Shown here: positions 7,272 through 47,695 of the stretch, one piece after another | Layout: each line of letters opens with the position of its first letter | How positions within the stretch are numbered: the stretch's first letter is position 1 | Source: Acidobacteriota bacterium | Lineage (GTDB): Bacteria > Acidobacteriota > DATKUA01 | Assembly: GCA_035530855.1 (NCBI GenBank) | Contig: DATKUA010000037.1 | Location: 30,333 to 94,332 of the forward strand | DNA: 64,000 bases | Direction: 5' to 3' | Program-made: the position numbers and the translations under genes | Notes under the pieces: generated by a model | The model's database searches: none | Told to the model about the DNA's origin: nothing | The model's input: the letters and a program-made list of their open reading frames with translations, nothing else

Positions 7272-8621
7272 TCAAGAAGGCCCCATCAGCCTACCGCTGA
7301 GGCTGTGACTCCCCGCTTCGATTATCTCCACGGGTATTATCCGGCCGATCAAATCTTTCGATGCGGTGAGGTTTACAACGAGGTTGCCCTCCGTTCTGCC
7401 GCAAAGCTGCCCTCCTCCGTGCGCAGATTCGCCCTCGATAAGTACCGGCTGCGTCATACCGACCATCTTCCCGTGATTTTCTCTTTGTATCCGCTCTTGG
7501 AGTTGCTGCATGCGTTGCAGCCGTTCGACTTTAACCTCTCTCGCGACGTCATCATCAAGCTCTGCCGCTTTCGTGCCAGGCCTCGGCGAATATACGAAAG
7601 TGAAGAGATTCGAGAAACGAACTTCCGCTAATAAATCTAGAGATAACTTGAAGTCCGCTTCGTTTTCCCCCGGAAATCCGCAGATGAAGTCGCCGGATAC
7701 CGATACATTCTTCAAGTGTTTCTTTAATACTTTAACTTTGTTCAGGTAATCCATTCTCGTATATTTCCGGTTCATCGCTTTCAGAATGCTGTCGCTGCCG
7801 CTCTGGGGTGGAAGGTGTATTGCGTTGCAAATATTGTCATGTCGCGCCATCACCTCCGCCACACCCTCAGTGAAGTCTTTGGGATGCGATGTGATGAATC
7901 TAATTCTATCGATTCCACTGATCCGGGCTACATTGTCCAATAAACCGGCGAAGTCCATTCCGGAATTCTCATCATTGTAAGAGTTGACGTTCTGACCCAG
8001 AAGCTGGATTTCAACGTAGCCGTTTTCTGCAAGCCGCCGGACTTCCTCGAGGATATTTCCGGCAGGCCGGCTGATCTCTCTTCCCCTGACATGGGGCACG
8101 ATGCAATAGCTGCAAAAATTGTCGCAGCCTTCCATGATCGTTACATAGGCAACCGCCTTCGAACCGCGAACGAAAATTGCTGAATCGGACAAATTGCCTT
8201 CGAGTTCAACAAAGCTGACTCCCCCGCCCCCGCTCTCTCGTTTCTGTTTGAATTCCTGCAATAGTACGGGAAGTCTCGAAATCGCCCTCGTGCCAAGGAC
8301 GATATCAGTGTGCGGCGCGCGATCAAACAGCCGCTCTCCCTCGCGCTGGGCTATGCAGCCGCTCACACCCACGATCAGATCGGGATTTGAGCGCTTCAAC
8401 AGGCGTACCCTGCCTAGCTTGGTGAAAAGCTTCTGATCGGCCTTTTCCCTGACACTGCACGTGTTGAGGAAGATCACATCCGCCTCTTCCTCGCATTCTG
8501 CTGCTTGATAGCCGAGCGTTTCCAGGACTCCCGCCAGATGCTCGCTGTCGTGCACATTCATCTGGCATCCGAAGGTGTGGATGTAATATCTACCCGTTGC
8601 TGTTGTTTTGATGTCGGTCAT
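7272..8621 (-). CDS. miaB: tRNA-i6A37 methylthiotransferase MiaB (radical SAM MTTase)
   Basis: The N-terminal 'YYIHTFGCQMNVHDSE' is the MTTase domain with its Cys triad. A radical SAM CxxxCxxC block ('CDNFCSYCIVP') and a C-terminal TRAM domain follow. Confidence 0.9.
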   Translation of the reverse strand: MTDIKTTATGRYYIHTFGCQMNVHDSEHLAGVLETLGYQAAECEEEADVIFLNTCSVREKADQKLFTKLGRVRLLKRSNPDLIVGVSGCIAQREGERLFDRAPHTDIVLGTRAISRLPVLLQEFKQKRESGGGGVSFVELEGNLSDSAIFVRGSKAVAYVTIMEGCDNFCSYCIVPHVRGREISRPAGNILEEVRRLAENGYVEIQLLGQNVNSYNDENSGMDFAGLLDNVARISGIDRIRFITSHPKDFTEGVAEVMARHDNICNAIHLPPQSGSDSILKAMNRKYTRMDYLNKVKVLKKHLKNVSVSGDFICGFPGENEADFKLSLDLLAEVRFSNLFTFVYSPRPGTKAAELDDDVAREVKVERLQRMQQLQERIQRENHGKMVGMTQPVLIEGESAHGGGQLCGRTEGNLVVNLTASKDLIGRIIPVEIIEAGSHSLSGRLMGPS

Positions 8622-23558: not shown

Positions 23559-26500
23559 CTAATTAATGATTTTCGGTGAGATGAAGATCAACAACTCGGT
23601 GTTCTGAATTCTTTCAAGCCGGTTTCGGAAGAGCCTGCCGATGAGCGGCAACTTACTGAGAAACGGCGTCCTCTCGTAGGTGAGGTTGTTGGAGATCTCC
23701 AGAACGCCTCCGATTACCGCTACGCCGCCGTCCTTGACCAGCACGGTGCTGGTGGCGGCGCGCTTCTGAATGGTGAAACCTGCTGCGGTGGCGATACCGA
23801 GCGAGCTCTTGTCGACTACCAGGTCGAGGATCACCGTGGAATCGGAGGTGATGTGCGGCGTGACTTCAAGCTTCAATGTCGCCTCACGCCACCTGATACC
23901 GACGGTGTTGTTCTGAACCACCTGGAATGGGACCTCGACACCGCTCTTGATCTCTGCCCGGGCGTTGTTTTGTGCGCTGATCCTCGGCCGGCTCAACACC
24001 CTAACCTTCTTCTCGCTCTCGGCTGCCGTAAGGATTACGTCGAGTATGAACGATCCGCTGATATTGGCGAACGATCCGACAATGGAACTGCTTACGGAGT
24101 TGGCAGGCAGGTTAACAGCGAACGGGACCAGACCCGCCCCCGACAAGTTAGCGCCGGCACCCGCAATCGTCACCTGGTTCGGAAACACGAGGCCCGTCGA
24201 AGAGCCGTATTCCGACGTCGCGGAGCCGCGGAAGCCGTATTGGAGGCCGAACTCGTTGATAAAGTCCCTGGTAGTCTCGACGATCCTGGCCTCTACGATA
24301 ACCTGCTTAGTCGGTATATCTAGCGCATCGATCAGCCTTAGATGTTCTTCAACCTTGGACGGGATGTCGGCAATGACAAGAGTGTTGGTTCGTTGATCGA
24401 CAACTACTTCGCCCTTGCTGCTCAGGTTACGCCGGATCAGATTTGCCAGAGCATCAGCTTTGGCATAGTTGATCGGCTTGGCTATATGGCGCAACGGCAC
24501 AGCCAGAGCCCTCTGTTCGATCAGATTGCGCCTCTCTTCCGCTTCAGTAGCTAACCTTGAGCGGCTGGCGATCCTGATAACATTACCCTCCTCGACCTTG
24601 CCGAGACCGTAGTAGTCGAGGATGATATCGAGCGCCTGATCCCATGGTAGATCGCGAAGGCTGATAGTGACGCTGACTGGCTGCACCGAGGGATCGACGA
24701 CGAAATTCTTGTCCGTCATCTGCCCAAGCAGCAAAACCAGAGCCCTGAGATTGATAGTCTCGAACTCGAGGCTCACGTTTTTTCCGTAGTATTGCCTTTC
24801 CGCGCTGGTGATCTCTTTGATCTGGAAGAAATCGCTGCTACCGGCCGTGCGTTCCTGCGGGCTTGAGATTTCTTTCTGTCTAGGTTCCTTGGACGAAAAT
24901 GTCTTCGGTTTGCTGGCGGCCGGACGTTCAACCTTGCTTGGCTGAAGATTGTCAGGATACTGATTGTTGAAAAGGCTGAGATTTTCGCTTATCGGCTCCT
25001 CCGTGCTTCCAGAGTTGTCAGTTGGAGTCTCAACATGGGTAACGGTCGGTTCATTAATTTCGGAGGGTTCTTCCCGGATAGCTTCTTCAACGGGGGCTGT
25101 GGAATCGTTGACCATCTTTGCTTCTTCGGCCGGAGCTTGCCCGTTGCTCCCCTCTAGGTTCTCTACTTCAGGAATTGTTTCAGTCTCAGCCTCGGTTGTA
25201 ACGCTATTTTCAGGAGATCGCGATTCAGAGAGCTGCTTCTCCTCAGCTACTTCTGCTACCGGCGAGATTTCCTCATCGTCGGCCTGAGTTTCAATCGCAT
25301 CTTCTTCCGGTTCAGCAGTGATCGATTCCTCCTGGGCTTCAATCTCCGGCGCCTGCGCTTCAGCTTCAGTTTCCGGAGTGGGCTCAGTTTCAATGATTTC
25401 TGCTACCGTTTCCATCTCCGTAGCGAGTTCAATGGGCTCTACCTCAATTTCCTCATCCTCCTGCGCCTGCTCATCAACCACGCTCTCGGGGACTTCCGGC
25501 GCAGGATCGTCTTCTCCGGCTACGGCCTTGGCAACGTCCGTGAGTTCTGCTTCAGCTAAATTCGGCTCGACAACCGGTTCTTCAGTTTCACTGACCGCTT
25601 CAGCTAGCTCTTCCTTGGCCTCGACCTGCGGCTCGACTGCGTCGCCGAAGAGCAGCACGAGGTCGTTACCCCTTTCCAGGACTGCCGGCTGCGAACCATC
25701 AATCAGATCGAGCACGACACGGCTGATCGGATATGGATCGACAGCGAACTGCGCCGAGCGCACTGAACTAAAGAATTGCGAGCCGGTTGCGTCACTCTTG
25801 CGCGCAAGCAGGTTGGACGCGCCGTGGAAATCAACTACGAATCGAGGCGGTTTTCCAACCGGCACGACTCGATACAATTCTCTGTCAATCGGACGGTCAA
25901 ACGAGATGATCACAGCGGAATCGTCTGCTTTTTCGCGCACGGCAAGGTTGACCATGTTGTAGTGAACCACGGGATTTAGGCGGTATTTCAGCGCAGCATC
26001 CGTTACAGCGTCATCCACCTCAGCCTGGCTCCCGCCGCCGTTCTTTTCCACGCCACCCGCGTTTTTCGCGATCTCTACCTCTTCAACTTCCGTTTCCGCT
26101 TTATCCAGTTCATTTCCACTCTCAGTATCCACAGGCTCCGAATCGGCCTCCATCGGATCATTCTCTGCTACTTGTTCAATACCTCGCCCGTCCGCGACAT
26201 CGTAGAATTCAACAAAAAGCCTTCGACCTTTAGGCGTGATCTTGTATTTCTTATCTGGATAATGTCGGATAGAAATAGCCGTGACTTCCTCGGCAGCCGG
26301 CGTCAGCCTGTTGCTTACTTTTATACTGTCGATCGAATTAGATCCGATTGTAATACCGGGAGCGATGGCGCTGATATCAGCCTTTTCCGTCTCGATGACG
26401 AGAGTCGTCTGCCCTTCGGAATATGCTTTGTATGTGAACGGAAGATTGGCCCTGATAACCAATCTGCTGCTGTTGGTGCTCTCCAGATACTGCAGATCAA

Positions 26501-26618
26501 CTATTCGCAGCGCCAGCTCAGAGTCGCTTTCCCCCAAGGGAGCAGCTATAACCGGTGATAATGCCGCCAGTAAAACTGCGACAGTGAGCGTTACCCTGAT
26601 GAACATAGCACCCTCCAT
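23559..26618 (-). CDS. pilQ: Type IV pilus secretin PilQ (AMIN, AMIN, long acidic linker, N0/N1, secretin)
   Basis: The C-terminal secretin domain is 'VLSRPRISAQNNARAEIKSGVEVPF...ERTPFLSKLPLIGRLFRNRLERIQNTELLIFISPKII'. Two AMIN-like β-domains lie near the N-terminus. The total length is 1019 aa. Confidence 0.88.
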   Translation of the reverse strand: MEGAMFIRVTLTVAVLLAALSPVIAAPLGESDSELALRIVDLQYLESTNSSRLVIRANLPFTYKAYSEGQTTLVIETEKADISAIAPGITIGSNSIDSIKVSNRLTPAAEEVTAISIRHYPDKKYKITPKGRRLFVEFYDVADGRGIEQVAENDPMEADSEPVDTESGNELDKAETEVEEVEIAKNAGGVEKNGGGSQAEVDDAVTDAALKYRLNPVVHYNMVNLAVREKADDSAVIISFDRPIDRELYRVVPVGKPPRFVVDFHGASNLLARKSDATGSQFFSSVRSAQFAVDPYPISRVVLDLIDGSQPAVLERGNDLVLLFGDAVEPQVEAKEELAEAVSETEEPVVEPNLAEAELTDVAKAVAGEDDPAPEVPESVVDEQAQEDEEIEVEPIELATEMETVAEIIETEPTPETEAEAQAPEIEAQEESITAEPEEDAIETQADDEEISPVAEVAEEKQLSESRSPENSVTTEAETETIPEVENLEGSNGQAPAEEAKMVNDSTAPVEEAIREEPSEINEPTVTHVETPTDNSGSTEEPISENLSLFNNQYPDNLQPSKVERPAASKPKTFSSKEPRQKEISSPQERTAGSSDFFQIKEITSAERQYYGKNVSLEFETINLRALVLLLGQMTDKNFVVDPSVQPVSVTISLRDLPWDQALDIILDYYGLGKVEEGNVIRIASRSRLATEAEERRNLIEQRALAVPLRHIAKPINYAKADALANLIRRNLSSKGEVVVDQRTNTLVIADIPSKVEEHLRLIDALDIPTKQVIVEARIVETTRDFINEFGLQYGFRGSATSEYGSSTGLVFPNQVTIAGAGANLSGAGLVPFAVNLPANSVSSSIVGSFANISGSFILDVILTAAESEKKVRVLSRPRISAQNNARAEIKSGVEVPFQVVQNNTVGIRWREATLKLEVTPHITSDSTVILDLVVDKSSLGIATAAGFTIQKRAATSTVLVKDGGVAVIGGVLEISNNLTYERTPFLSKLPLIGRLFRNRLERIQNTELLIFISPKIIN

Positions 26619-27175
26619 TATTGGCGCATCCTGACCGTCAACGGTTCGTATTTAACGTCCGGCTGGCCGCTTACCTTAGGTCCCACACGCTCCAGCTTCT
26701 GCAAGAACTTGACGTACTTGCCGTCAAAGCTGATCTCAACTATCCGCCCGTCGTACGCTTCGTCTCCTACCGCAACGATGAACAACTTGTTGTCCGGGGC
26801 ACGAAACATTGAGGTCACTTTCGTGCTTTCCTTCCAGATCGCCATCAGCGTCAGTTGATTGATGTCATACCTGCCGAAACCCGACTGCGGGCGCGGTTTT
26901 TCGCTGATCTCGTAAGTTGCCGCGGTACTCTGCTGCTGACGCTGAGCCCTGATAAAGGGATCCTGGCGTTTCGTGGTGTCGGAGAGAACCTGCAGCACAA
27001 ACCGCTCGATCTGCTTTGCCGATTTCAGCTCCGCAGGTCTGCGGATCTGCTTCTTTGCCGTCTCTTGTGCAGATACCGGCGCGGCCAGCAGCAAGACAAG
27101 GCAAACCGAAAGCGCTGCCGCCAGGAAGGCAAAAATTAAGCTCTTCGAGGCTTCTCCCGTGTGCATACGCATCAT
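26618..27175 (-). CDS. pilP: Type IV pilus assembly lipoprotein/periplasmic protein PilP
   Basis: It has a signal/TM segment, 'DPFIRAQ', and a C-terminal β-domain 'KLFIVAVGDEAYDGRIVEISFDGKYVKFLQKLE'. Its position between pilO and pilQ fits PilP. Confidence 0.65.
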   Translation of the reverse strand: MMRMHTGEASKSLIFAFLAAALSVCLVLLLAAPVSAQETAKKQIRRPAELKSAKQIERFVLQVLSDTTKRQDPFIRAQRQQQSTAATYEISEKPRPQSGFGRYDINQLTLMAIWKESTKVTSMFRAPDNKLFIVAVGDEAYDGRIVEISFDGKYVKFLQKLERVGPKVSGQPDVKYEPLTVRMRQ

Positions 27176-27810
27176 TCGCCCTCCTCCTCGAGCTCTCCCT
27201 CTTCCTCGGGCCGGTAGACATATGAGGCTATCTTGAAACTGGCTGTCACGGGATAGCGGTCACCCTGCATCTTCGATTCCGCGGTGCGCGTCAACTGAAG
27301 ATCGTAAATGTGTACGACCAGGTCCTTGCGTACCAGGCCATCGAAAAAGCGCATGAAATCAAGCGTTCTGCCTCGCGTCTCAAGGCTGACCACTCTCTCG
27401 AAATACTGGTCGTGTTCAGTTGTGTCGCTAGCCCTGTAGCTGTCGAGCACGATGTCGTAATCGCGAGCTATCTCCTCGATGAAGCGTTTTACGCGGACAT
27501 CGTCCTTCTCCGAGGGGAACACTTTCTCCAACAGCACAAGGTCTGTCCGGATCTGCTCGATCTCGAACTCCAGCTCTTCCTTGCGGCTTTCTTCGGGTTT
27601 GTACTTACGGATCTCGTCGCGGATGTTGTTGAGCCGGCTCTCCATATTCCTGACTTCCTCGACCTCGGCCGAATAGATGAACTGGTAGAAGACCCAACCC
27701 AGCACGGCGCAAAGACCCGCTACGATCAGTAACTGTCCCCAATACGGGAGTTCCTGCAAGTTCATGCTAGCCTCCCGCCTCGCCCTCGGCGCTCCCCTGC
27801 CCCTCCTCAC
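27172..27810 (-). CDS. pilO: Type IV pilus assembly protein PilO
   Basis: It has a single N-terminal TM ('YWGQLLIVAGLCAVLGWVFYQFIY'), a coiled coil, and a C-terminal PilO fold. It overlaps pilP and pilN at their junctions. Confidence 0.75.
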   Translation of the reverse strand: MRRGRGAPRARREASMNLQELPYWGQLLIVAGLCAVLGWVFYQFIYSAEVEEVRNMESRLNNIRDEIRKYKPEESRKEELEFEIEQIRTDLVLLEKVFPSEKDDVRVKRFIEEIARDYDIVLDSYRASDTTEHDQYFERVVSLETRGRTLDFMRFFDGLVRKDLVVHIYDLQLTRTAESKMQGDRYPVTASFKIASYVYRPEEEGELEEEGE

Positions 27811-28381
27811 CCGCGAGAGAGGAGAGGGGATGGAAGGCGATGTTTATTTCGAACTTGTTCCCCGTCGCGCTCACGATGTCGACGCCTGTTACCAGCACCT
27901 CGGCCGCAAGTTCGTCGAGAAACCTGTTCAGGTTTTCGTCCGTTGCCTCGCCCTTCACAGTGAATTCGAGCATACTCTCGGATTCGGAGGTTTTCTGTCT
28001 GATCTCGTCGATTATCACGTCAGGCCTGTTCTGTTGCGCTATATAGAGGTAAAAAACGGCATACAGCGGTGTGCGGAGGTTGTTCTTCAGATCGCTGAGC
28101 ACATCGAGCCGCAGAGCGAGCTTCTCACGCTCAAGCTCCAGGCGATCAACAAGCTCCTTGATGCTCTTGAGGCGTTCCCTTTCTGCCGACGCCGCCCTGG
28201 TCTGAGTGTCAAGATCCGCCTTCCTGCCCTGGATGTCGAACCACAGCCACGCCCCCACCGCCACCGTCAGCAGGAAGATTGCGAGGAAGCCCAGTTGTTT
28301 TACTGTTTCCGAAGGAGCCGCCTTCGCTGCCGGCCTTCGCTCCTTGCGGCGTTCTCTGCGGAGCAGGTTGATGCGGATCAT
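27767..28381 (-). CDS. pilN: Type IV pilus assembly protein PilN
   Basis: The N-terminal 'IRINLLRRERRKER' is the PilN INLLP-type motif. A TM segment and a coiled coil follow. Confidence 0.8.
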   Translation of the reverse strand: MIRINLLRRERRKERRPAAKAAPSETVKQLGFLAIFLLTVAVGAWLWFDIQGRKADLDTQTRAASAERERLKSIKELVDRLELEREKLALRLDVLSDLKNNLRTPLYAVFYLYIAQQNRPDVIIDEIRQKTSESESMLEFTVKGEATDENLNRFLDELAAEVLVTGVDIVSATGNKFEINIAFHPLSSLAGEEGQGSAEGEAGG

Positions 28382-29445
28382 CAGTCTTCCTCCACGCGGA
28401 CAGACAGTCCAACGGCTACCGTGAAGTTGACCGCCTGGTCGCGGATGTACTCGACGTCAAACTGTTTGGAGTTAACGCTTATGTTGCGGAAAGGATCCAT
28501 CACCTCAACTGCCGTGTTGAGTCGCGCGCCGAGCAGGTCCACCAGCCCCGGCGTGCTGGCGGCGCCGCCGCTGACCAGCACCCGATCCAGGGTTCCGATT
28601 TCGGAGCTGCCGAGGTAGAAGTCGAAGGTCTTGGCGATCATTTCGACCACCTCCTCGGTTGCTCGATCGAGCACCGGGACCACCGCATCCGGGGATGCGC
28701 CCTCCACATCGAAGCCGCGCTTGGCGTCCTCGGCCTGCTCGACTCCCAGGCCGAGACTGCGCTGTAATGCTTCGGTGTGGCGATTGCCGCCTGTCATGAT
28801 GTCTCTCCAGAAGGAGGTCTTCCCCCGCTCGATAATATTGATGCTGGTGACGCTCGCACCGATATTTACCAAGCCTATGCTCTCTTCCTTGAGATCGGGA
28901 TAGTTGATTTCGAAGCAGTTCTGAATCGCGAACACGTCCACATCGACAAGCACTGTGCTCTTGCCGACCTGGCTGATGACGCTGGTGTAGTCGTTAACCT
29001 TCTCTTTCTTTACGGCGACGAGAACCACATCCATCGAGCCCTCTTCCTGCGCGTCGCCGAGCGGATGGTAATCGACCATCACCTCGTCAATCTCGAACGG
29101 AATGTACTGCTCCGCTTCCCACTGGATCGAATCCTTCAGTTCGCTTTCGCTCATCTGGGGTACTGTAATCTTCTTGATGATTACCGAATTACCCGCCAAC
29201 GAGATCGCGACATCACCTATCCTACTTTTCAAATCGCGCAGCAGTCGATCAAGTACATCGATCACGGCCACCGAGTCGATGATGTCGCCCTCGACAATCA
29301 CTTGGGGCGCAACGGGCTCAAGGGCAATCTTCTCCAGATCATAGGAGATATTGGCTCCTTTGCCGGAATGCTTCAGGAGGACCGCTTTGATCGCGTGCGA
29401 TCCAATATCGATCCCGAGAAACCTTTTCCGCCTTCCAAAAAACAT
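28381..29445 (-). CDS. pilM: Type IV pilus assembly ATPase-fold protein PilM (actin-like)
   Basis: 'LGIDIGSHAIKAVLL' is the actin/FtsA-like phosphate-1 motif. I placed the start at the internal ATG ('MFFGRRKRF') because a GGAGGG ribosome-binding site lies 5 nt upstream. The longer ORF in the track would overlap the HTH gene. Confidence 0.85.
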   Translation of the reverse strand: MFFGRRKRFLGIDIGSHAIKAVLLKHSGKGANISYDLEKIALEPVAPQVIVEGDIIDSVAVIDVLDRLLRDLKSRIGDVAISLAGNSVIIKKITVPQMSESELKDSIQWEAEQYIPFEIDEVMVDYHPLGDAQEEGSMDVVLVAVKKEKVNDYTSVISQVGKSTVLVDVDVFAIQNCFEINYPDLKEESIGLVNIGASVTSINIIERGKTSFWRDIMTGGNRHTEALQRSLGLGVEQAEDAKRGFDVEGASPDAVVPVLDRATEEVVEMIAKTFDFYLGSSEIGTLDRVLVSGGAASTPGLVDLLGARLNTAVEVMDPFRNISVNSKQFDVEYIRDQAVNFTVAVGLSVRVEED

Positions 29446-29473
29446 ATGCCCTCCGGTTGCTGCCGCCCCCCCT

Positions 29474-29671
29474 TTACCGCCTCTTAACCTGTTCCGCCGG
29501 AATGCGCCTGTTCTTATACTCAAGGCATTGCTTCACGTGCTTCTCAGACCAGATGCGGTAATTTTTGTAGTCTCGGTCGGGTTCGTTGATGATCCCTTTC
29601 TTTAGCCAGCTATAAATTGTCTTCTTCGACACACCGACCTTCTCCGCAACTTCAGAAGTTGTATAGGCCAC
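29474..29671 (-). CDS. Small excisionase/MerR-type HTH DNA-binding protein (HTH_17-like), 65 aa, immediately upstream of pilM
   Basis: 'YTTSEVAEKVGVSKKTIYSWLKKGII' is a canonical HTH. It has a GTG start with a GGGAGGG ribosome-binding site 8 nt upstream. The gap to pilM is 28 nt. Confidence 0.6.
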   Translation of the reverse strand: MAYTTSEVAEKVGVSKKTIYSWLKKGIINEPDRDYKNYRIWSEKHVKQCLEYKNRRIPAEQVKRR

Positions 29672-34720: not shown

Positions 34721-36358
34721 TTACCGAGTTTGCTCCCTAGCCAGGCTTAGGGCTTTCGCCCGCTCGGGATCGGTCTTCGCGATTAGCTGGAGATAATAAT
34801 TGGCGAGGACTACGTCCTTCTCTCTCTTGTACAACTCCTCAAGCCGCTTCAAGCGCTCTTCACCGAGGATGCGATCGAGCCGCCGAACAATAAACATCTT
34901 GATTCTGAGGTCCGGCGTTTCCTCGAGAATTTCAATAAAGACATCCTGAACTTCCGGCAACTCAACCACAGGCGTCAAGCCTGCCACCAGCTCGGCGGTG
35001 ACCAAGGTAGGTGGTAGCTCGGGCATCTTGAGCATTCCCAAGAGCTCGACCCGGATTTCGGGGATCTCCACGTGGGTCGAGAGAACGCGTATCGCCGACG
35101 AAGTCAGTCTGATCTCGCTCTTGTTTTCGAGCGTGACCTCGAGGATCGCCTTTCGCACATCTTCATCCTGGACGGAGTCGGAGAGTATATTCATAGCGGC
35201 GATCCTGACGCTGACACTGGGATCGGATTTCAGAGTCTTGACAACAAGTTTCTTGACCTTCGGGTCATGCACTTTCGCGGCTATCAGGTTCAAGGCGTGC
35301 AGGCGGATGGTGGGCGCAGGATTCTCAATCAACGATTCCACCAACACATTCTCCTCCTCGATTCTTATCTTTGTCCGGCCCCGAATTCCGTTCATCAATG
35401 CGTACTTGATCGTCGGATTCGGCTCACTTTCGATCCTGCTGACGATTTCGTCTGTCACCTGCTGGCCGGCACCCCTCAAACTCAATCCATCGACCACACT
35501 GATAAGTACCAACGGATCGCTCTCGGTTCTGATCACGCTGACGAATGCTTTCGCGACATCCACATCCTCGAGGTGGGGAGTGAGCGCAGTAGCAGCTGTC
35601 ATTTTTACGAGGCTGTTGCGGTCGGTGGTCAGAGCGTGCGAGAGGGCTCTCCTAACCTCTTCGTTACCCGACATTCCTGCCAGAACCGAGGCGGCCGTCA
35701 TGCGGACGATGTCGTTTCGCGACGTCTCCAGGGCCAGCGCGAGGGCCTGCCTCACCTCATTATCCTGCCGGCGGTTGGCTAACAGACTTGCGATCCTGAT
35801 CTGCTGGAATTGGTCGCCTCCTTCAAGCCCCTTTATGAGCACGAATTTGCCGCTCCAATCACCTACTTCCGCGAGGCTTATTGCCGATTGGACCGCATAG
35901 TAATTGCCGGAGCCGGTCTGCATTTGTTTTACAAGGAAATTATCGTATTCGTCCCCTTTGGTTCGTCGCAGAACTCTGGCGAGATCCATGGCGCGTTCCA
36001 TCGCCCTGCGGTAGGCGTTGCTGCTCCGGTAGTTATCCAACAACTGCTTGTAGCGGCTGAACGCCTGCTGTTTCTGCCCCAAATACTCACGGCAATAACC
36101 CAGATAAAAGAGAGCATCGTCCGCCCGGTGGCTCCCGGGAAACGCCGCCAGAAACGATTCGAATTTCTCTGCAGCCTCAGCGAATCTGTGGCTAAGGAGT
36201 AGTTGACGGGCCTCAATGTAGGCCTGCAGCCCCGGATCCTGATCCGAGACGAGAGTAAAACGAATCTCTTCTGCTGCCGCTGAGATTGCGAAAACGACGA
36301 TGATTAGAACCATGATATGCGGTATCGCTCTGCGCATCGCCGTCACCTCTCTATCCAC
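34721..36358 (-). CDS. Exported HEAT/PBS-lyase-like repeat protein with an N-terminal TPR-like region
   Basis: It has an N-terminal hydrophobic signal or anchor. Repeated 'xxVRxxAAxALxxxxxxE' HEAT-like units recur throughout, for example 'NDIVRMTAASVLAGMSGNEEVRRAL' and 'SVSVRIAAMNILSD'. It overlaps the upstream anti-sigma gene by 16 nt. Confidence 0.6.
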   Translation of the reverse strand: MDREVTAMRRAIPHIMVLIIVVFAISAAAEEIRFTLVSDQDPGLQAYIEARQLLLSHRFAEAAEKFESFLAAFPGSHRADDALFYLGYCREYLGQKQQAFSRYKQLLDNYRSSNAYRRAMERAMDLARVLRRTKGDEYDNFLVKQMQTGSGNYYAVQSAISLAEVGDWSGKFVLIKGLEGGDQFQQIRIASLLANRRQDNEVRQALALALETSRNDIVRMTAASVLAGMSGNEEVRRALSHALTTDRNSLVKMTAATALTPHLEDVDVAKAFVSVIRTESDPLVLISVVDGLSLRGAGQQVTDEIVSRIESEPNPTIKYALMNGIRGRTKIRIEEENVLVESLIENPAPTIRLHALNLIAAKVHDPKVKKLVVKTLKSDPSVSVRIAAMNILSDSVQDEDVRKAILEVTLENKSEIRLTSSAIRVLSTHVEIPEIRVELLGMLKMPELPPTLVTAELVAGLTPVVELPEVQDVFIEILEETPDLRIKMFIVRRLDRILGEERLKRLEELYKREKDVVLANYYLQLIAKTDPERAKALSLAREQTR

Positions 36359-37194
36359 AGCATGGGATTGGTCTTCCTCGCATCCCTGAGGCTCACAACC
36401 CTGGTCCTGAGCTGGTTGAGCCTGTCGAGAAGGTTGCGATCCTGTATGCCTCTCTGCAACGCCTCGATTTCGAACCAGATATCATCTTCACCGCCTTCGA
36501 TGCCGGCGATCTCGCCCACGAACAACTCGAGCTCATTGAAGATCGGTTCGATCTCGATAAAGCGGGGATCGTTGATACTCTCGCGCAGGAGCGAAATCTC
36601 GCTGAGTATCTCGCTCCCCGCCGCCCTGCTGCGTGAAACCAATTCGTTGTTTGAACTCCACTCCTGCGGATCGAGATCCATGAAGTTGCTTATCAGGGTG
36701 CTGGAGCGCTCTAAGGAGGAGTCGGCTACTTCGAAGAAATAATCTCTTTTGCTCTCTTCTATCTCCCTTTCGTACGGCAGGGTAATCGGCGTTTCGTCAG
36801 CCTCATATCGCGCGCCAGAATCTTCAATCCTCTGTTCGCTAATGATTCTTCCGATGAAGATCCCGATAATCAGCATCGCAGCGACAATCACAATCTGCAG
36901 CGCCGGCCTCCAGTTCCAGACCGCGGGGGCTTTCTCACGCCTGCTATTTGCAGTCCGCTCTTCTCTCTCGCGTCGCTGAAATTCAGGCCATACTTTGCGC
37001 CAGAACTCCGGGCCGGGATCCTCAGCCAGCCTGGCTTCGGAAACCACTCCCAGCGTCTCCTGAAGCTCGTTGTATTCTCGCGCCAGTTCCTCGTCGGCGG
37101 CCAGAGCCTCTTCCAATTCGCGCATGGCGACTGGATCGGCCTCGCCGAAGAGCGCCGAGACCATCAAATCTTGCAGTTTATGATGCTTGCTCAT
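36343..37194 (-). CDS. Putative anti-sigma factor (single-pass membrane protein)
   Basis: It overlaps the ECF sigma gene by 17 nt. It has an N-terminal cytoplasmic helical region, one TM ('LQIVIVAAMLIIGIFIGRII'), and an acidic periplasmic domain. Confidence 0.55.
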   Translation of the reverse strand: MSKHHKLQDLMVSALFGEADPVAMRELEEALAADEELAREYNELQETLGVVSEARLAEDPGPEFWRKVWPEFQRREREERTANSRREKAPAVWNWRPALQIVIVAAMLIIGIFIGRIISEQRIEDSGARYEADETPITLPYEREIEESKRDYFFEVADSSLERSSTLISNFMDLDPQEWSSNNELVSRSRAAGSEILSEISLLRESINDPRFIEIEPIFNELELFVGEIAGIEGGEDDIWFEIEALQRGIQDRNLLDRLNQLRTRVVSLRDARKTNPMLWIER

Positions 37195-37780
37195 CAGCCA
37201 CTCCTGACCCTTTTTTGACCAGTGGCAAAAGCACCTTCCTCATCTTCTGTACCGCCCGGTAGATATTCGTCTTTACTGTCGCTTCGGAGCTCTTGGTTGC
37301 GGCAGCGATCTCGCGTATCGAGAGCTGCGCAATGTGCTTCATTGCGAATGCCGTCCGCTGCGATTCCGGAAGCTCATCCATCGTGCGGCTCACCAAAGTG
37401 GAAATCTGCTCCGATGCCAGATTGCGCTCCGGATTACCCTTGGCATCGGGATTTTCCATCAGGTCGAAAACCTCCGTACCATCTTTATCGATCTCCGGCG
37501 CGGCTTCCTTTCTGCGGCGGCGTCTCAAATCGATTGATTTGTTGAAGGCTATCCTTAAAACCCAGGAGCCGAAGCCCTCCGGATGGCGCAGCCGATCGAT
37601 CGATCTCAAAGCCTGCAGCAGAGTATCCTGCAGCAGGTCCTCGGCATCGTGATGGTTGCCGACCACGCTGAGCACCGTGTAATAAATTTTCCGCTTGTAG
37701 CGCTCGGCAAGGAGCTGGAACGCCTCGATCTCATTGTTGCGCGCTCTGTCCACAAGCTCAGCGACGGTTGGTGCCATCAA
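37178..37780 (-). CDS. ECF-type RNA polymerase sigma factor (sigma-70 family, group 4)
   Basis: Region 2 is 'YKRKIYYTVLSVVGNHHDAEDLLQDTLLQALRSIDRLRHPEGFGSWVLRIAFNKSIDLRR'. Region 4 is 'ESQRTAFAMKHIAQLSIREIAAATKSSEATVKTNIYRAVQKMR'. Confidence 0.85.
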   Translation of the reverse strand: MMAPTVAELVDRARNNEIEAFQLLAERYKRKIYYTVLSVVGNHHDAEDLLQDTLLQALRSIDRLRHPEGFGSWVLRIAFNKSIDLRRRRRKEAAPEIDKDGTEVFDLMENPDAKGNPERNLASEQISTLVSRTMDELPESQRTAFAMKHIAQLSIREIAAATKSSEATVKTNIYRAVQKMRKVLLPLVKKGSGVADEQAS

Positions 37781-40302: not shown

Positions 40303-40373
40303 CGGCACTAAATATCACCCCCGGCGTGGTATGTCAAGAGCGGAAGCGAATCCGACGGCTTGATTTAGTGCCG
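40303..40373 (-). promoter_or_regulatory. Structured 5' leader of the rplU-rpmA operon: an 11-bp inverted repeat enclosing ~50 nt. It is a candidate ribosomal-protein autoregulatory leader.
   Basis: CGGCACTAAAT at 40303-40313 pairs with ATTTAGTGCCG at 40363-40373. The structure lies 23 nt upstream of the rplU start codon on the minus strand. Confidence 0.3.
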
Positions 40374-40444
40374 TCTTAAAATATAATCCATATTTACTGA
40401 ATAGTAAGAAATCATTACTCTTTTTCAACGGTTAAGGAGGAACC

Positions 40445-41770
40445 ATGGAATATCCCTTTCTCGAGGTTCCGCTCTTGGGTGGAGGCTTGCTGATCGGCGT
40501 GATCGCGATCGTTCACGTCTTCGTCAGCCATTTCGCCGTCGGCGGCGGCCTGTATCTCGTGCTGACGGAGCTCAAGGGCTACCGGGAGAAGAACGAGGCA
40601 ATCATCAACTATGTAAAGAAACACTCGATTTTCTTCATTCTCCTGACGCTGGTCTTTGGGGCCGTCACCGGAGTGGGCATCTGGTTTTCCATCGGGCTGG
40701 TTCATCCGATGGGAACCTCGGCGTTGATCCACGCCTTCGTTTGGGCCTGGGCTATCGAGTGGGTCTTCTTCTTCATCGAGATCGCAGCGGCTTTCATCTA
40801 CTACTACTCCTGGGACCGCGTAAACCGGAAAACCCACCTGGCAATCGGCTGGATCTACTTCGGCTCGGCATGGATGAGCCTGGTAATCATCAACGGCATC
40901 CTGACCTTCATGCTGACACCCGGCGCCTGGCTGCAAACGCACGCCTTCTGGGACGGGATATTCAATCCGACATTCTTCGTGTCGGTGCTGATCAGGACTG
41001 CGGTTGCCGTCATTCTCGCCGGACTCTACGGCCTTTTGACCGCCGCCTGGATCAAGGGCGACGACGATAACCGCGCTTTGATGATCAGGTACAATTCCAA
41101 ATGGCTGCTTTTCGGTTTTCTCTTCCTGGCGATTGTGGGGCCGTTCTTCGTTACCAGTATTCCGCCGTTGGCGCGCCACATCAGCATGGGAGGCGCCGCA
41201 GCGGTTACGCTTTTCGCCGCCGCTTCTGTTGCTTTCTCGGCTTTGATAGCGATTTTCACCTACTTCGGGCCTTACAGGCAGCCGCGCCAATTTTCAGTCA
41301 GCTTCGCCCTGCTGTTCATGATCCTGGGATTGATGGTAACCGGCGTGACCGAGTGGACCCGGGAGGCGGTGCGCAAGCCGTTTATCATCTACGACTATAT
41401 GTACTCGAATGGCTTACCGGGGGAGTTCTATCCCGATTCCGAAGCTATCCTGGCTAAATACCAGGCGGAGGGATTGCTGCCCAATTACAAGTGGTCGACT
41501 GTCGGTGAAGTCCGTGAAGACAATATCATGGAAGCCGGCCGGGAACTTTTCCGCATCCAGTGCGAGCAGTGCCACACCGTCGGCGGCTACAACGGCATCA
41601 AGCCGTTGGTATTCGGCTGGAGCCCGGTGCGGCTCTTCCGCGAAGTTCCCGACATCCACAATCTCAAGCCCTATATGCCTCCGAGCTACGGCCGCGAGGA
41701 GGAGCACCGCGCCCTTGCGCTATGGCTGAAATCGCTCAATGAGGAGCCCGAAGTGGAGGTGAAGCAATGA
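40445..41770 (+). CDS. Cytochrome bd oxidase subunit I (CydA)-like membrane protein with a C-terminal fused mono-haem cytochrome c domain (CXXCH) and no long Q-loop
   Basis: I compared it with E. coli CydA from memory. 'HVFVSHFAVGGGLY' aligns with the 'MYHFLFVPLTLG' haem-ligand region. 'LVFGAVTGVGIWFSIG' aligns with 'FALGVATGLTMEFQFG'. 'AIEWVFFFIEIAAAFIYYYSWDRV' aligns with '[25 protein letters not shown]'. The C-terminal soluble domain carries 'CEQCH' and a downstream Met. Confidence 0.7.
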   Translation: MEYPFLEVPLLGGGLLIGVIAIVHVFVSHFAVGGGLYLVLTELKGYREKNEAIINYVKKHSIFFILLTLVFGAVTGVGIWFSIGLVHPMGTSALIHAFVWAWAIEWVFFFIEIAAAFIYYYSWDRVNRKTHLAIGWIYFGSAWMSLVIINGILTFMLTPGAWLQTHAFWDGIFNPTFFVSVLIRTAVAVILAGLYGLLTAAWIKGDDDNRALMIRYNSKWLLFGFLFLAIVGPFFVTSIPPLARHISMGGAAAVTLFAAASVAFSALIAIFTYFGPYRQPRQFSVSFALLFMILGLMVTGVTEWTREAVRKPFIIYDYMYSNGLPGEFYPDSEAILAKYQAEGLLPNYKWSTVGEVREDNIMEAGRELFRIQCEQCHTVGGYNGIKPLVFGWSPVRLFREVPDIHNLKPYMPPSYGREEEHRALALWLKSLNEEPEVEVKQ

Positions 41771-42897
41771 GCTGGTTATTTACCGCGCTTCAGGTGCTGC
41801 CGCAGGCCGATCCGCTACCGCTCCCAGCCAGTCCCTGGATCTTCCTTTTCCTCCTGCACCTGACGTTCTCCCTGCATCTGATCGCCATGAATCTTACCAT
41901 CGGCGGCTCTCTTCTACTGACTGCCTCTTCGTTCCGCCGCTCGGAAAACTTGGAGAAACTCAGCGGATTTTTATCCAAGTTCCTGCCGTTCTCCCTGTCT
42001 TTCACGATCACTCTCGGCGTGGCGCCGTTGTTGTTCATACAGGTGCTCTACGGCCAGCTTTTCTTCACCACCTCGATTCTGATGGGCTGGTGGTGGCTGA
42101 TGATCCTGCTGTTCCTGATGATCGCCTATTACAGCCTCTATCTTTACCAGCACAAGCGGGACAAGTGGCCGATCGTTAGAACCTGGGCGCCGTTGATCAG
42201 TGTGGTGCTGATGGTGATCATAGCGCTGTTGTTCGTGATGAACTTCAAGCTGCTTTGCCGCTTTGCCGAGTGGAAAGAGATCTACACTAGCGGCGCGTCG
42301 GGCTGGTTTCTCAATTTCGGCCATCCCCTGGTCTTCCCCACCTGGATCCACCACCTCCTCGCTGCGGTAGCCATCGGTGGCATTCTCTTGATCCTCCACG
42401 GCTGGGGTCGCCGGAGCAGGGATCTGTCTTATGCGGACTGGGCGGCACGGACGGGTGGAATCATGTTCGTCGTGCCGACTTTTATCCAATTCGCTGCCGG
42501 TTACTGGATGCTGAAAGTGCTGCCGCACCAATTGCTTAAGGCCTACATGTTCGGCAGCGTTTTTGAGACCGCCATTTTGTTCATCGGCATGGCCACGGGA
42601 ACACTGGCCGCGCTGCTGATCGCCTGGGTTGCCTGGAAGAGGCGTTACGGCTGGCCCGTCCTGATTTCGCTGGTCCTGATCGCGGCGACCACGGCGCTGA
42701 TGGTGATTAAGAGGGCCATGGTTCGTGAAGCTTTGCTGGCCGATCTCAAGGGATTCGACATCTCGGCTATGCCTGTTGCGCCGCAGTGGGATACCATCGC
42801 CATTTTCGCTGTGCTACTTGTCGGCGGTCTAGCCGTCGTGGGCTGGATGCTCTACGTCCTTTTCCGCGGTAAAAAGGATGTCGACGAGGCGGCATAA
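41767..42897 (+). CDS. Polytopic membrane protein, probable second subunit (CydB-equivalent) of the bd-like oxidase
   Basis: Its start overlaps the upstream stop as ATGA. It has ~9 predicted TM helices and several Trp/His in the helices. I see no recognisable motif beyond this context. Confidence 0.45.
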   Translation: MSWLFTALQVLPQADPLPLPASPWIFLFLLHLTFSLHLIAMNLTIGGSLLLTASSFRRSENLEKLSGFLSKFLPFSLSFTITLGVAPLLFIQVLYGQLFFTTSILMGWWWLMILLFLMIAYYSLYLYQHKRDKWPIVRTWAPLISVVLMVIIALLFVMNFKLLCRFAEWKEIYTSGASGWFLNFGHPLVFPTWIHHLLAAVAIGGILLILHGWGRRSRDLSYADWAARTGGIMFVVPTFIQFAAGYWMLKVLPHQLLKAYMFGSVFETAILFIGMATGTLAALLIAWVAWKRRYGWPVLISLVLIAATTALMVIKRAMVREALLADLKGFDISAMPVAPQWDTIAIFAVLLVGGLAVVGWMLYVLFRGKKDVDEAA

Positions 42898-46318: not shown

Positions 46319-47695
46319 ATGCTACCGATGCGTGAAACCGGCAAGGAAAGCTCGAAGCAATACCGTCTCAAGGTCGGCCTCTGCAGCCTGGGGTGCGCCA
46401 AGAACCAGGTCGATTCCGAGGTGATGCTCGGTAAACTACGCGACGCCGGATTCTCGATTGTAGACGATCCTTCATTTGCCGACGCCATCGTTGTCAACAC
46501 GTGCGCCTTCATCGACGATGCCAAACAGGAATCGATCGATACAATCCTGGAGATGGCGCAATACAAGGATGGCGGCAATTGCCGTCGTCTGGTGGTAGCC
46601 GGCTGCCTCAGCCAGCGCTACCGCGCGGAGATCGTCAAGGCGATTCCTGAAATCGATGCCTGCCTGGGAATAGACGAGCTGGACAAGATAGCCGACGCCT
46701 GCAGGGGTAGTTTTCAACCTGTCGCGGAAACACCACCACTGCCGTTGCGACTCGATTGCGCCACCCAGGAGAGAGTGCTCATCTCCCCCAGTCATTACGC
46801 TTACCTGAAAATCTCCGACGGTTGCGACCACCGCTGCAGCTTCTGTGTCATCCCAAAAATCAGGGGAAAGTACAGAAGCAGGCAACCGCAAGACGTCGTT
46901 GCCGAGGCAGAAAAGCTGATCGGTAAAGGCGTCAAAGAGTTGATTCTCGTGGCCCAGGACCTCGGACGCTACGGCCGGGACATAGGCATGGAAGACGGCC
47001 TTGTCTCCCTGGTTGAACAATTGGTCCGCCTCGACGGCCTCTCCTGGCTGCGCCTTCTTTACGTCTATCCCGAGGGAATCAGCCCGCGCCTGATTGAATT
47101 AATTGCCTCGGAGGAGAGGCTTGTCCCCTACCTCGACATTCCTCTGCAACATGCCTCAGCGAGGGTACTCAAGAGCATGAGCCGCGGCGGCAGCGGCGAA
47201 AAGGCGCTACAAAAAATAAGCGCTTTGAGAGAGGCCGTTCCTGAAATTGCGATAAGGACATCGCTGATCGTCGGCTTCCCAACCGAGGAAGAAAGGGATT
47301 TCGAAGAGTTACTCGATTTTGTAGCAGCTGCGCGGTTCGATCACCTAGGGGCCTTCGCTTACTCACACGAAGAAGGCTCCGACGCGCACGAACACTTCGA
47401 GGACCGATGGCCGCCGGAAATCAAGGGTGAACGCCGCAACCGCGTGATGGCGCTGCAAAGCAAAATTTCGCTCGAAAAAAACCATGCCAGAATCGGCAGC
47501 AGATCTCCCTGCATCATCGACGGCCTGCACCCGGATAGTGAGATGCTGCTGGCCGGCAGGTTGCCCACGCAGTCTCCCGATGCCGACGGCATCGTGATCA
47601 TCAACGAAGGATCGGCTCGTCCCGGCGAGATAGTTTCGGTGGAGATTACCGAGGCGCACCCTTATGATCTGGTCGGGAGGATTGTCGATGACTGA
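46319..47695 (+). CDS. rimO: Ribosomal protein S12 methylthiotransferase RimO
   Basis: The N-terminal MTTase domain is 'VGLCSLGCAKNQVDSE...NTCAFI'. The radical SAM block is 'CDHRCSFCVIP'. A C-terminal TRAM domain follows. The start may be the ATG at 46331. Confidence 0.85.
   Translation: MLPMRETGKESSKQYRLKVGLCSLGCAKNQVDSEVMLGKLRDAGFSIVDDPSFADAIVVNTCAFIDDAKQESIDTILEMAQYKDGGNCRRLVVAGCLSQRYRAEIVKAIPEIDACLGIDELDKIADACRGSFQPVAETPPLPLRLDCATQERVLISPSHYAYLKISDGCDHRCSFCVIPKIRGKYRSRQPQDVVAEAEKLIGKGVKELILVAQDLGRYGRDIGMEDGLVSLVEQLVRLDGLSWLRLLYVYPEGISPRLIELIASEERLVPYLDIPLQHASARVLKSMSRGGSGEKALQKISALREAVPEIAIRTSLIVGFPTEEERDFEELLDFVAAARFDHLGAFAYSHEEGSDAHEHFEDRWPPEIKGERRNRVMALQSKISLEKNHARIGSRSPCIIDGLHPDSEMLLAGRLPTQSPDADGIVIINEGSARPGEIVSVEITEAHPYDLVGRIVDD

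Follow-up and report, generated by a model that had tools for sequence, protein, structure and literature searches.

Which reaction is catalysed by the product of a gene pair that public annotation describes as a 'cytochrome ubiquinol oxidase subunit I' followed by a 'hypothetical protein'? The pair lies in a 64-kb stretch (the window) of contig DATKUA010000037.1 from the MAG of an Acidobacteriota bacterium. An initial annotation, made from the sequence alone, had read the locus as a cytochrome bd-like oxidase of the OR-C type with a c-type haem domain fused to the CydA-like subunit. Only three enzyme superfamilies reduce O2 to water, the cytochrome bd oxidases among them, and, to our knowledge, all structures and assays of the bd superfamily so far come from its quinol-oxidising branch. 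The initial annotation held the OR-C enzymes to be biochemically unstudied, and our literature search likewise found no biochemical study (purification, assay) of them.

The locus is laid out as follows.

40360..40387, + strand: promoter-like site TTGATT-16 nt-TATAAT, 10/12 matches in a consensus scan only, with its function inferred.
40434..40440, + strand: Shine-Dalgarno sequence AAGGAGG, 4 nt 5' of the gene 1 ATG, from sequence reading.
40445..41770, + strand: gene 1, 441 aa, the OR-C1a-type CydA-like subunit (NCBI HUX06154.1, 'cytochrome ubiquinol oxidase subunit I').
41756..41761, + strand: Shine-Dalgarno-like GAGGTG within the end of gene 1, 5 nt 5' of the gene 2 ATG, from sequence reading.
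41767..41770, + strand: ATGA start/stop overlap of the two genes, from the ORF list and sequence reading.
41767..42897, + strand: gene 2, 376 aa, the OR-C1b-type partner, a 9-TM diverged CydA paralogue without a haem c motif (HUX06155.1, 'hypothetical protein').

Both reading frames and their overlap are where the initial annotation had placed them. The junction reads ...AAGCAATGAGC..., with the ATG at 41767 overlapping the TGA at 41768-41770, and this overlap suggests translational coupling of the two genes. The promoter-like site falls inside the 164 bp that separate the divergently oriented rplU and gene 1. The flanking genes in the window are of housekeeping type (L21/L27/Obg/RsfS, an ECF sigma factor, AsnRS, RimO, PgpA, pil genes and parAB). 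We found no functional partner genes in the neighbourhood of gene 1 and gene 2, either in the window or in 80 related loci. A gene 2-type partner adjoins the gene 1-type gene in 72 of these 80 loci; neighbour clustering produced no other recurrent neighbour in more than 12 of them, and all such neighbours were downstream, on the same strand and in related genomes. The two genes probably make up a self-contained two-gene operon of the OR-C1 type within the cytochrome bd superfamily.

The membrane part of gene 1 and its conserved positions are these.

40481..41368, + strand: membrane domain, aa 13-308, eight TM helices with the CydA fold (AlphaFold2, Foldseek, PF01654).
40514..40516, + strand: His24, the counterpart of H19 in E. 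coli CydA, which is the axial ligand of the di-haem active site; 133/133 sequences.
40757..40780, + strand: Glu105 to Glu112, corresponding to E. coli E99/E107 of the proton pathway; each 134/134, from alignments and Murali Table S6.
41363..41380, + strand: motif E307-A-V-R310-K-P312 where TM8 reaches the periplasm, proposed to correspond to E. coli E445-x-x-R448-x-P450.

The proposal that gene 1 corresponds to the N-terminal half of CydA was borne out. PF01654 (CydA) matched gene 1 with E=9.5e-14 and 51.2 bits (cut-off 26.2), and the GAVTGVG helix, the AIEW...WDR block and His24 are all in the protein. The match is limited to residues 17-231, that is, to profile positions 6-222 of 418. The AlphaFold2 model (pLDDT 86.3) contains eight TM helices (residues 13-47, 51-86, 88-121, 128-157, 177-201, 207-238, 241-277 and 285-308). 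A Foldseek search with this model returned CydA chains as all of its top 10 hits (E 1.5e-6 to 2.1e-4), and the model matched the CydA chains of all solved bd oxidases. The turn between TM6 and TM7 takes about 3 residues in the model, so the Q-loop is absent, as initially annotated.

In bd oxidases, H19, E445, E99 and E107 define the O2 site and the proton channel. We counted conservation over 134 gene 1-like and 124 gene 2-like sequences, with denominators that vary by position. A direct comparison of the profile with the single E. coli CydA sequence mapped only TM2-4 of gene 1; for the residue mapping we relied on N-cap motifs of the helices, on HMMER alignments against 5DOQ and on the alignment of the gene 1 and gene 2 profiles. 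Gene 1 H24 aligned with H21 of G. thermodenitrificans and is the same as H24 of the OR-C1a reference. E105 and E112 aligned with E101/E108 of G. thermodenitrificans and E99/E107 of E. coli, and have the shorter, G. thermodenitrificans-type spacing. Around the end of TM8, E303, R306, E307, R310 and P312 are each present in 134 of the 134 sequences, and E307..R310..P312 aligned with E378..R381..P383 of G. thermodenitrificans in a weak second HMMER domain. We confirmed the motif E445-x-x-R448-x-P450 in the sequence of E. coli CydA, where E445 is the haem b595 ligand. From the motif and the weak alignment, it is plausible that E307 is the equivalent of E445, a position marked absent ('-') for OR-C1a in the study that defined this family (bioRxiv 10.1101/2021.01.16.426971).

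None of the 134 sequences had a histidine at the H186 position; the corresponding residue, I183 (P175+8), is L, I, V, M or F across the family. Gene 1 M248 is conserved in only 72 of 134 sequences. This residue and gene 2 M261 (45/124) align with each other and were considered as M393 equivalents; both are poorly conserved, and we do not claim them as ligands. The set of haem b ligands named in the initial annotation is thus kept in part: gene 1 has the H19 equivalent and, as an OR-C1a protein should, lacks counterparts of H186 and M393.

These observations bear on the reading that public annotation implies, a canonical quinol-oxidising cytochrome bd (CydAB). The PF01654 match and the NCBI name of gene 1 agree with it, but the match covers only the part of the profile given above, the Q-loop is missing, gene 1 has 8 TM helices rather than 9, H186-position and M393 ligands are lacking, gene 2 has no match to CydB (PF02322) even at E<=1, and a haem c domain is found instead. 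We rejected this reading as highly improbable.

Beyond TM8, gene 1 continues into a second domain.

41438..41734, + strand: C-terminal periplasmic class I cytochrome c domain, aa 332-430, from PF13442 in relatives, PDB profile matches and topology.
41561..41575, + strand: CXXCH haem c attachment motif C373-E-Q-C376-H377; 133/133 sequences.
41675..41677, + strand: Met411 (YMPP), candidate sixth haem c ligand; 130/130 sequences.

A single CXXCH and a candidate Met ligand had been noted at the outset, and both are conserved throughout the covering sequences. The motif is the sole CXXCH among ORFs of at least 80 aa in the six frames of the window. Gene 1 shows the class I cytochrome c pattern of an N-terminal helix, CXXCH, a distal Met and a C-terminal helix. 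Its own PF13442 score is 24.2 bits, just below the cut-off of 27; all 52 aligned relatives matched both PF01654 and PF13442, with a best PF13442 E-value of 2.1e-22. The domain profile searched against the PDB matched c-type cytochromes only, with CcoP at 2.1e-8. Because the number of TM helices is even (8) and the charges follow the positive-inside rule (K+R per loop of 5, 3, 4 and 2 on the cytoplasmic side and 0, 0, 0 and 1 on the periplasmic side), the CXXCH domain is placed in the periplasm and not in the cytoplasm. The tail of gene 1 is therefore predicted to be a periplasmic cytochrome c domain that carries haem c. It resembles CcoP and class I cytochromes c (PF13442) in its CXXCH and distal Met; unlike in CcoP, the domain is fused to a bd-type and not a haem-copper membrane subunit.

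Two histidines of the partner subunit are of interest.

41875..41877, + strand: gene 2 His37, which aligns with H24 of gene 1 and H19 of E. coli; 124/124 sequences.
42349..42351, + strand: gene 2 His195, at the helix register that H186 (haem b558 ligand) has in E. coli CydA; 121/124 sequences.

The AlphaFold2 model of gene 2 (pLDDT 90.9) has 9 TM helices, the number first given for it. The accompanying description as an unrelated-looking protein did not stand. No Pfam or NCBIfam family matched gene 2. It shares its fold with the canonical bd subunits and is closer to CydA than to CydB; the two proton-channel glutamates and a haem c motif are lacking. Judged from sequence and fold, gene 2 is a diverged CydA paralogue in CydB's place, the OR-C1b partner listed in the 2021 paper on the family.

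The profile of gene 2 compared with E. coli CydA gave E=0.076, too weak for mapping. The N-cap Pro of TM5 precedes His195 by 8 residues. Gene 2 may itself hold b-type haem through His37 and His195. As a tentative extension, which we see as possible but rather doubtful, the haem sites could be split across the subunits: the histidine that binds low-spin haem b558 in all canonical CydA proteins is missing from gene 1 and would be kept in the partner as His195, and OR-C1 would be a heterodimer with four or five haems whose formerly 'silent' CydB position is redox-active, for example with electrons passing from c to b (partner) to the di-haem site. The acceptor in anaerobes might be other than O2.

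In isolated cases the partner is fused to CusF/SCO1 or carries a fused haem c domain of the Tll0287 type, a hint at further cofactor chemistry. A copper site in gene 2 (HxxxM, conserved Met residues, the CusF/SCO1 fusion) was considered and set aside: its support is a single fused representative, and in the solved CydA structures the distance between H19 and H186 is too great for both to belong to one site. We also saw apparent gene 1-gene 2 fusions, of which P0313 is seemingly in-frame and P0361 and P0367 are seemingly frameshift artefacts; they are weak evidence.

The OR-C1 family, made up of OR-C1a and OR-C1b, was defined by phylogenomics (Murali, Gennis & Hemp 2021; bioRxiv 10.1101/2021.01.16.426971). 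All ten listed OR-C1a signature residues (H24, E105, E112, S145, H131, L153, Y119, Y121, V77 and W80) are present in gene 1 at the reference numbering, in line with the OR-C-type branch initially suggested; this residue match to Table S6 serves here as a surrogate for clade phylogeny. The gene pair fits OR-C1a/OR-C1b of Murali et al. It shares with OR-C1 the 8-TM subunit a, the lack of a quinol site, the C-terminal periplasmic CXXCH, the adjacent haem-c-free paralogue, and Acidobacteriota among the hosts. The same authors described a haem-c-free 'hypothetical' OR-C1b beside a monohaem OR-C1a in Thermoanaerobaculum, Hydrogenobacter and D. vulgaris DP4 (bioRxiv 10.1101/2021.01.16.426971). We found nothing essential that differs from OR-C1, and the locus is a typical monohaem member. 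Gene 2 was modelled with 9 TM helices, whereas the paper gives 8 for OR-C1b (bioRxiv 10.1101/2021.01.16.426971). What looks like an addition to the 2021 paper is E307 as the likely E445 equivalent and a b558-type histidine register in gene 2.

Compared with canonical CydAB (E. coli bd-I, 6RKO; G. thermodenitrificans, 5DOQ/5IR6), the fold of both subunits and the pseudo-symmetric heterodimer are alike, and gene 1 keeps the equivalents of H19, E99, E107, S140, H126 and probably E445. On the other hand, gene 1 lacks the Q-loop and the haem b558 ligands, TM9 is replaced by the cytochrome c domain, and cytochrome c, not quinol, is the presumed donor. CydAA' (qOR4a/qOR4b, Caldivirga maquilingensis) is, as far as we know, the only partly characterised bd enzyme with a CydA paralogue as its second subunit. 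There too, subunit II duplicates CydA, with the H19 equivalent kept and the channel glutamates lost; however, subunit I of Caldivirga keeps the quinol site and the haem b558 ligands and has no haem c, so the likeness is one of architecture and not of membership. The OR-N 'bd-like' oxidases of Nitrospirota and Nitrospinota likewise have no quinol site, presumably rely on cytochrome c, occur as a/b paralogue pairs and are uncharacterised. They differ in having 10-14 TM helices and an H186 equivalent in the a subunit, in belonging to a different clade, and in having haem c or Rieske/cytochrome b partners encoded by genes of their own.

We consider it probable (roughly 0.6) that the locus encodes an O2 reductase fed by periplasmic cytochrome c through the fused haem c, with no quinol oxidation. 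Under this mechanism, gene 1 would have retained TM1-8 of CydA and carry a His/Met-ligated class I cytochrome c where the canonical TM9 stands. A periplasmic c-type cytochrome or other periplasmic donor would reduce the fused haem c, from which electrons would move on to the membrane-embedded b/d-type haems. O2 would be reduced to water at the di-haem site (H24, E307), with cytoplasmic protons reaching the active site through the E105/E112 pathway, together with S145 and H131. The resulting charge separation would generate membrane potential without quinol oxidation at the OR-C1 enzyme.

No other c-type cytochromes, donor cytochromes or oxidases, haem-copper oxidases included, were found in the 64-kb window; the absence of an encoded candidate donor there stands against the cytochrome c-fed reading. 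In the related loci, a nearby CXXCH ORF (a candidate donor) occurred in only 8 of 80.

The same proteins could alternatively serve as a transmembrane electron conduit between periplasmic cytochromes c and the quinone pool, working as a cytochrome c:quinone or quinol:cytochrome c oxidoreductase, with a quinone site or b-haems in subunit b and no terminal reductase. This is improbable, as H24, E307 and the glutamate-lined proton channel are kept in every covering sequence, octahaem forms included, which would be unexpected for a plain conduit, and subunit a has no quinol-site features (Q-loop, H186/M393).

The OR-C1 module was found in at least 587 species representatives (counted by the cytochrome-c-fused subunit), and the partner subunit was matched by 2,743 protein clusters at 50% identity. 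Its hosts include strict anaerobes (Desulfovibrio, Thermodesulfovibrio, Sulfurospirillum) as well as aerobes (Chitinophaga, Lysinibacillus, Hydrogenobacter) (bioRxiv 10.1101/2021.01.16.426971). Chitinophaga pinensis (Cpin_6091), Lysinibacillus sphaericus and D. vulgaris are genetically tractable carriers, as is Sulfurospirillum multivorans. In S. multivorans cells adapted to fermenting pyruvate under anoxia, the orthologue SMUL_0150 was 39.5-fold up (PMC6242987). This induction is the sole expression datum that we found for OR-C1. It does not point to aerobic respiration and, like the strict-anaerobe hosts, stands against the O2-reductase reading.

Both observations agree with a reading in which the architecture is the same and the acceptor is not respiratory O2: the enzyme, supplied with electrons from the periplasm, could shield anaerobic or microaerophilic metabolism by scavenging O2, NO or peroxide, or it could reduce another small oxidant. 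Canonical bd oxidases do serve in O2 and NO detoxification (PMC10839748). Still, the conserved di-haem ligands and proton channel are the same as for O2 reduction, and the two readings cannot be told apart from sequence alone; the presence of the family in aerobes also speaks against this alternative, which we regard as rather unlikely.

The locus does not represent a new type of system; as a compact and clean monohaem example it could suit expression work, with E307 and the mapping of the partner H37/H195 as concrete targets for mutagenesis. The routine mis-annotation of such pairs as 'ubiquinol oxidase subunit I' and 'hypothetical protein' distorts the metabolic reconstructions of MAGs, including the Acidobacteriota genome studied here. 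The OR-C branch is widespread in aerobes and strict anaerobes, and it appears to draw on the periplasmic cytochrome c pool.

Gene 1 (the CydA-like subunit with a fused haem c domain) and gene 2 (its overlapping downstream partner) were found exactly at the coordinates given in the initial annotation, with the ATGA overlap that it had described:

40360-40387, + strand: sigma-70-like site TTGATT-16-TATAAT in the divergent intergenic region upstream (consensus match)
40434-40440, + strand: Shine-Dalgarno-like sequence AAGGAGG ahead of gene 1
40445..41770, + strand: gene 1, ORF of 441 aa (GenBank HUX06154.1)
41756-41761, + strand: Shine-Dalgarno-like sequence GAGGTG ahead of gene 2
41767..42897, + strand: gene 2, ORF of 376 aa (GenBank HUX06155.1)

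The next gene, asnS, has its own promoter-like site ahead of its start, again a consensus match. Since such sites precede both the pair and asnS, genes 1 and 2 look like a separate transcription unit, as far as consensus matches indicate. The flanking genes are housekeeping ones. The minus strand upstream carries rplU, rpmA, obg, rsfS plus an ECF sigma/anti-sigma pair; asnS, a DUF3352 protein gene, rimO and pgpA follow downstream, and the more distant genes include riboflavin genes, murJ, parAB and pil genes. No further respiratory genes were found in the 64-kb window besides the pair, and its sole CXXCH motif (ORFs of at least 80 aa, all six frames) was in gene 1.

Some of the surrounding genes have features of their own. 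Ribosomal protein L21 (39726-40280, minus strand) has 184 aa, compared to roughly 100 aa for bacterial L21, with a long C-terminal tail rich in Lys, Ala and Pro. In the ECF sigma cluster (34721-37780, minus strand), about 2.7 kb upstream of the gene 1/gene 2 operon and on the opposite strand, the ends of the 200-aa sigma factor and of a 283-aa putative anti-sigma protein, which has no Pfam match, overlap, and a 545-aa HEAT/TPR-repeat protein lies 16 nt downstream of them. A type IV pilus assembly cluster (23559-29523, minus strand) includes PilM, PilO-like and PilP-like proteins and a 1,018-aa PilQ-type secretin. There are also two UPF0004/radical-SAM/TRAM methylthiotransferase paralogues of the MiaB/RimO type (7272-8621, minus strand; 46319-47695, plus strand) and a 674-aa protein (59300-61327, minus strand) that joins an N-terminal thioredoxin-like/AhpC-TSA domain to NHL repeats.

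The CydA homology claimed for gene 1 was borne out by the Pfam match to PF01654 (CydA), with E=9.5e-14, over the curated cut-off, and restricted to residues 17-231. The cytochrome c family PF13442 scored 24.2 bits, slightly below its 27-bit cut-off; this is not a concern, because all 52 aligned relatives of gene 1 matched both families (best E 2.1e-22 for PF13442 and 4.4e-19 for PF01654). The solved structures matched by a profile of the C-terminal domain were c-type cytochromes only: CcoP (2.1e-8), bc1 cytochrome c subunits, c552 and c6.

The AlphaFold2 model of gene 1 (pLDDT 86.3, pTM 0.83) shows eight TM helices and, C-terminally, a helical domain. In Foldseek, the top ten matches were CydA chains, covering every solved bd oxidase, and CydB came next. 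At the canonical CydA Q-loop site the model has a TM6-TM7 turn of roughly three residues, in agreement with the missing Q-loop reported initially. Lys and Arg residues number 5, 3, 4 and 2 in the cytoplasmic loops and 0, 0, 0 and 1 in the periplasmic segments. From the eight helices and these charges, an outside position is predicted for both the N-terminus and the cytochrome c domain, rather than the cytoplasmic placement of the CXXCH domain that the initial annotation had named as counting against its reading.

Residue conservation was counted in 134 gene 1-like sequences, from the 52-row alignment and 80 genomic loci. E105, E112, Y119, N150, N174 and R184 were invariant (134/134), as were E303, R306, E307, R310 and P312 in the TM8 region. 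H24 and C373/C376/H377 were kept in 133/133 sequences and M411 in 130/130; C373/C376/H377 and M411 are the single CXXCH and the candidate Met ligand first noticed in the soluble tail. H131 was present in 127 of the 134, and S145 in 129 with Thr in the remainder. HMMER and hhalign aligned H24, E105 and E112 with H21, E101 and E108 of the bd oxidase of G. thermodenitrificans, and E105, E112, H131 and S145 with E. coli E99, E107, H126 and S140.

In gene 1, I183 takes the place of E. coli H186, eight residues past the TM5 N-cap proline; His was found there in 0 of the 134 sequences, which always have L, I, V, M or F. The aligned Met248 was present in only 72 of the 134. The gene 1 subunit has therefore lost the haem b558 site. 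Among the haem b ligands named initially, the H19 equivalent (H24) is kept and the equivalents of H186 and M393 are absent. The invariant E307-x-x-R310-x-P312, at the periplasmic end of TM8, has spacing identical to E445-x-x-R448-x-P450 of E. coli (checked against the bd-I structure, 6RKO) and to E378..R381..P383 of G. thermodenitrificans, on which it falls in a weak second HMMER domain. From this motif, we infer that E307 is the E445 equivalent.

Gene 2 had no Pfam or NCBIfam match and had been described as unrelated-looking. However, a profile of 54 of its relatives could be aligned with that of the gene 1 family along 285 columns (hhalign, probability 97.8%, E=9.6e-13), and the gene 1 and gene 2 HMMs cross-matched each other's ORFs in the fetched loci at 1e-6 to 1e-16. 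By these results, gene 2 is instead a diverged CydA paralogue. The two channel glutamates are absent from it, with L114 and Y121 in those columns. No CXXCH was found in the 72 gene 2-like ORFs from related loci or in gene 2 of the window, whose protein has a single Cys.

Among 124 gene 2 sequences, H37 (in the column of gene 1 H24 and E. coli H19) and Q92 (in that of E. coli E74) were kept in all 124, H195 in 121, and R316 and R320 were near-invariant. H195 is located eight residues past the TM5 N-cap proline, in the motif [D/E]-P-T-x-x-P-R-x-L-H, and so matches the H186 register of E. coli and G. thermodenitrificans. With H195 and H37 kept, the partner may carry haem rather than serve as a silent CydB-like scaffold. 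Also conserved in gene 2 are H37-x3-M41, M312 and M361. Two relatives of gene 2 carry extra C-terminal modules after an added hydrophobic or lipobox segment: CusF and SCO1/SenC copper-chaperone domains in P0321, and a Tll0287-like domain with a CLTCH motif in P0265.

Both exact proteins are in GenBank, from an Acidobacteriota MAG. Gene 1 is named there 'cytochrome ubiquinol oxidase subunit I', with the quinol site missing, and gene 2 'hypothetical protein', in fact a CydA-fold subunit; the public annotation of the pair at 40445-42897 is misleading. A quinol oxidase, as annotated, is very improbable, since this reading is contradicted by the absence of the Q-loop, of the b558 ligands and of CydB.

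Of the first 600 pattern matches (one-genome-per-species contigs), at least 587 encoded a relative of gene 1; Acidobacteriota, Ignavibacteria/Bacteroidota, Armatimonadota, Methylomirabilota and Bacillota are among their sources. Clustered at 50%, the gene 2 family comprises 2,743 representatives. A gene 2-like ORF adjoined the gene 1 homologue in 72 of the 80 fetched loci. The eight others included L045, L050, L053 and L063, where the match runs to the contig end, and L028, L043, L046 and L049, from Fervidibacter or related Armatimonadota. In F. sacchari, whose genome is complete, the ORF next downstream of the gene 1 homologue has 340 aa and is not gene 2-like. Locus L058 likewise has no gene 2-like ORF following the gene 1 homologue, but has one about 1.3 kb upstream of it. 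No other neighbour recurred in more than 12 of the 80 loci, and a CXXCH ORF was nearby in only 8.

Variants were also observed among the related loci. Besides dihaem forms of gene 1, there are octahaem homologues (~880 aa, eight CXXCH) at L060, L065, L075, L077, L078, L079, L082 and L083, where the gene 2-like ORF precedes the gene 1 homologue, in reversed order; L060 and L077, the two long forms that were inspected, keep all active-site and channel residues. Tandem gene 1-like copies followed by one gene 2-like gene were found at L005 (197-3910; 54% identity between the copies) and L010 (7980-11726), with all key residues kept in both copies. The protein P0313 (798 aa) is apparently an in-frame natural fusion of a gene 1-like part (8 TM and CXXCH) with a gene 2-like part; such a fusion would fit the topology and speak for physical association of the subunits. 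Two further long forms, P0361 and P0367, look like products of frameshifts and include Arg-rich junk.

The bd superfamily has been split into qOR, OR-C and OR-N (Murali, Gennis and Hemp, bioRxiv 10.1101/2021.01.16.426971). In that classification, OR-C1a is an 8-TM CydA without the quinol site and with a C-terminal periplasmic haem c portion, and OR-C1b is its adjacent paralogue; the presumed donor is cytochrome c. Their Table S6 gives for the OR-C1a reference H24, E105, E112, S145, H131, L153, Y119, Y121, V77 and W80, together with F183 for H186 and '-' for both M393 and E445. Gene 1 has 10/10 of these residues at the same numbers, and I183 compared to F183 at the H186 position. Table S7 of the same work lists many monohaem OR-C1a genes and, with consecutive gene identifiers, OR-C1b genes that lack haem c and are labelled 'hypothetical protein'; examples come from Thermoanaerobaculum, Hydrogenobacter thermophilus and D. 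vulgaris DP4. By this match of residues and architecture, the pair is very probably an OR-C1 enzyme, and the locus appears to be a typical OR-C1a/OR-C1b pair, as the initial OR-C-type assignment had proposed. Modestly new would be E307 as a putative E445-type ligand, at a position marked absent in the published table, and the b558-type histidine (H195), plus H37, apparently kept in the partner.

The analyses establish the architecture, the predicted topology, the conservation of ligand and proton-channel residues, and the linkage of the two genes. In the mechanism that we propose, with a probability of about 0.6 for the whole including O2 as acceptor, electrons would enter from a periplasmic c-type cytochrome at the fused His/Met haem c of gene 1 and pass to a di-haem site with H24 and E307 as its ligands. 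There O2 would be reduced with cytoplasmic protons delivered via E112/E105, and charge would be separated as in canonical bd oxidases, with no quinol oxidation at the OR-C1 enzyme. It is rather unlikely that the same enzyme serves as a scavenger of O2, NO or peroxide, or uses another acceptor in anaerobes; a conduit of electrons between cytochrome c and quinone is more doubtful still.

In the literature up to mid-2026, we found no purification, spectroscopy, structure or genetics of an OR-C enzyme, as the initial annotation had also held, and papers after the OR-C classification only cite it. The sole functional or expression hint found for the family is proteomic: SMUL_0150 of Sulfurospirillum multivorans, listed as OR-C1a in Table S7 (10.1101/2021.01.16.426971), was 39.5-fold more abundant in cells adapted to pyruvate fermentation (PMC6242987, Table 2) and about 8-fold higher in fermentative than in respiratory conditions, and a NosL-family protein rose together with it (PMC6242987).

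The initial observation is confirmed and its interpretation supported, with the nature of gene 2 as the one correction. The locus adds a member to a family that is already known, defined bioinformatically and biochemically uncharacterised. It would not surprise a specialist; it is of interest as an experimental target and for the correction of annotation.
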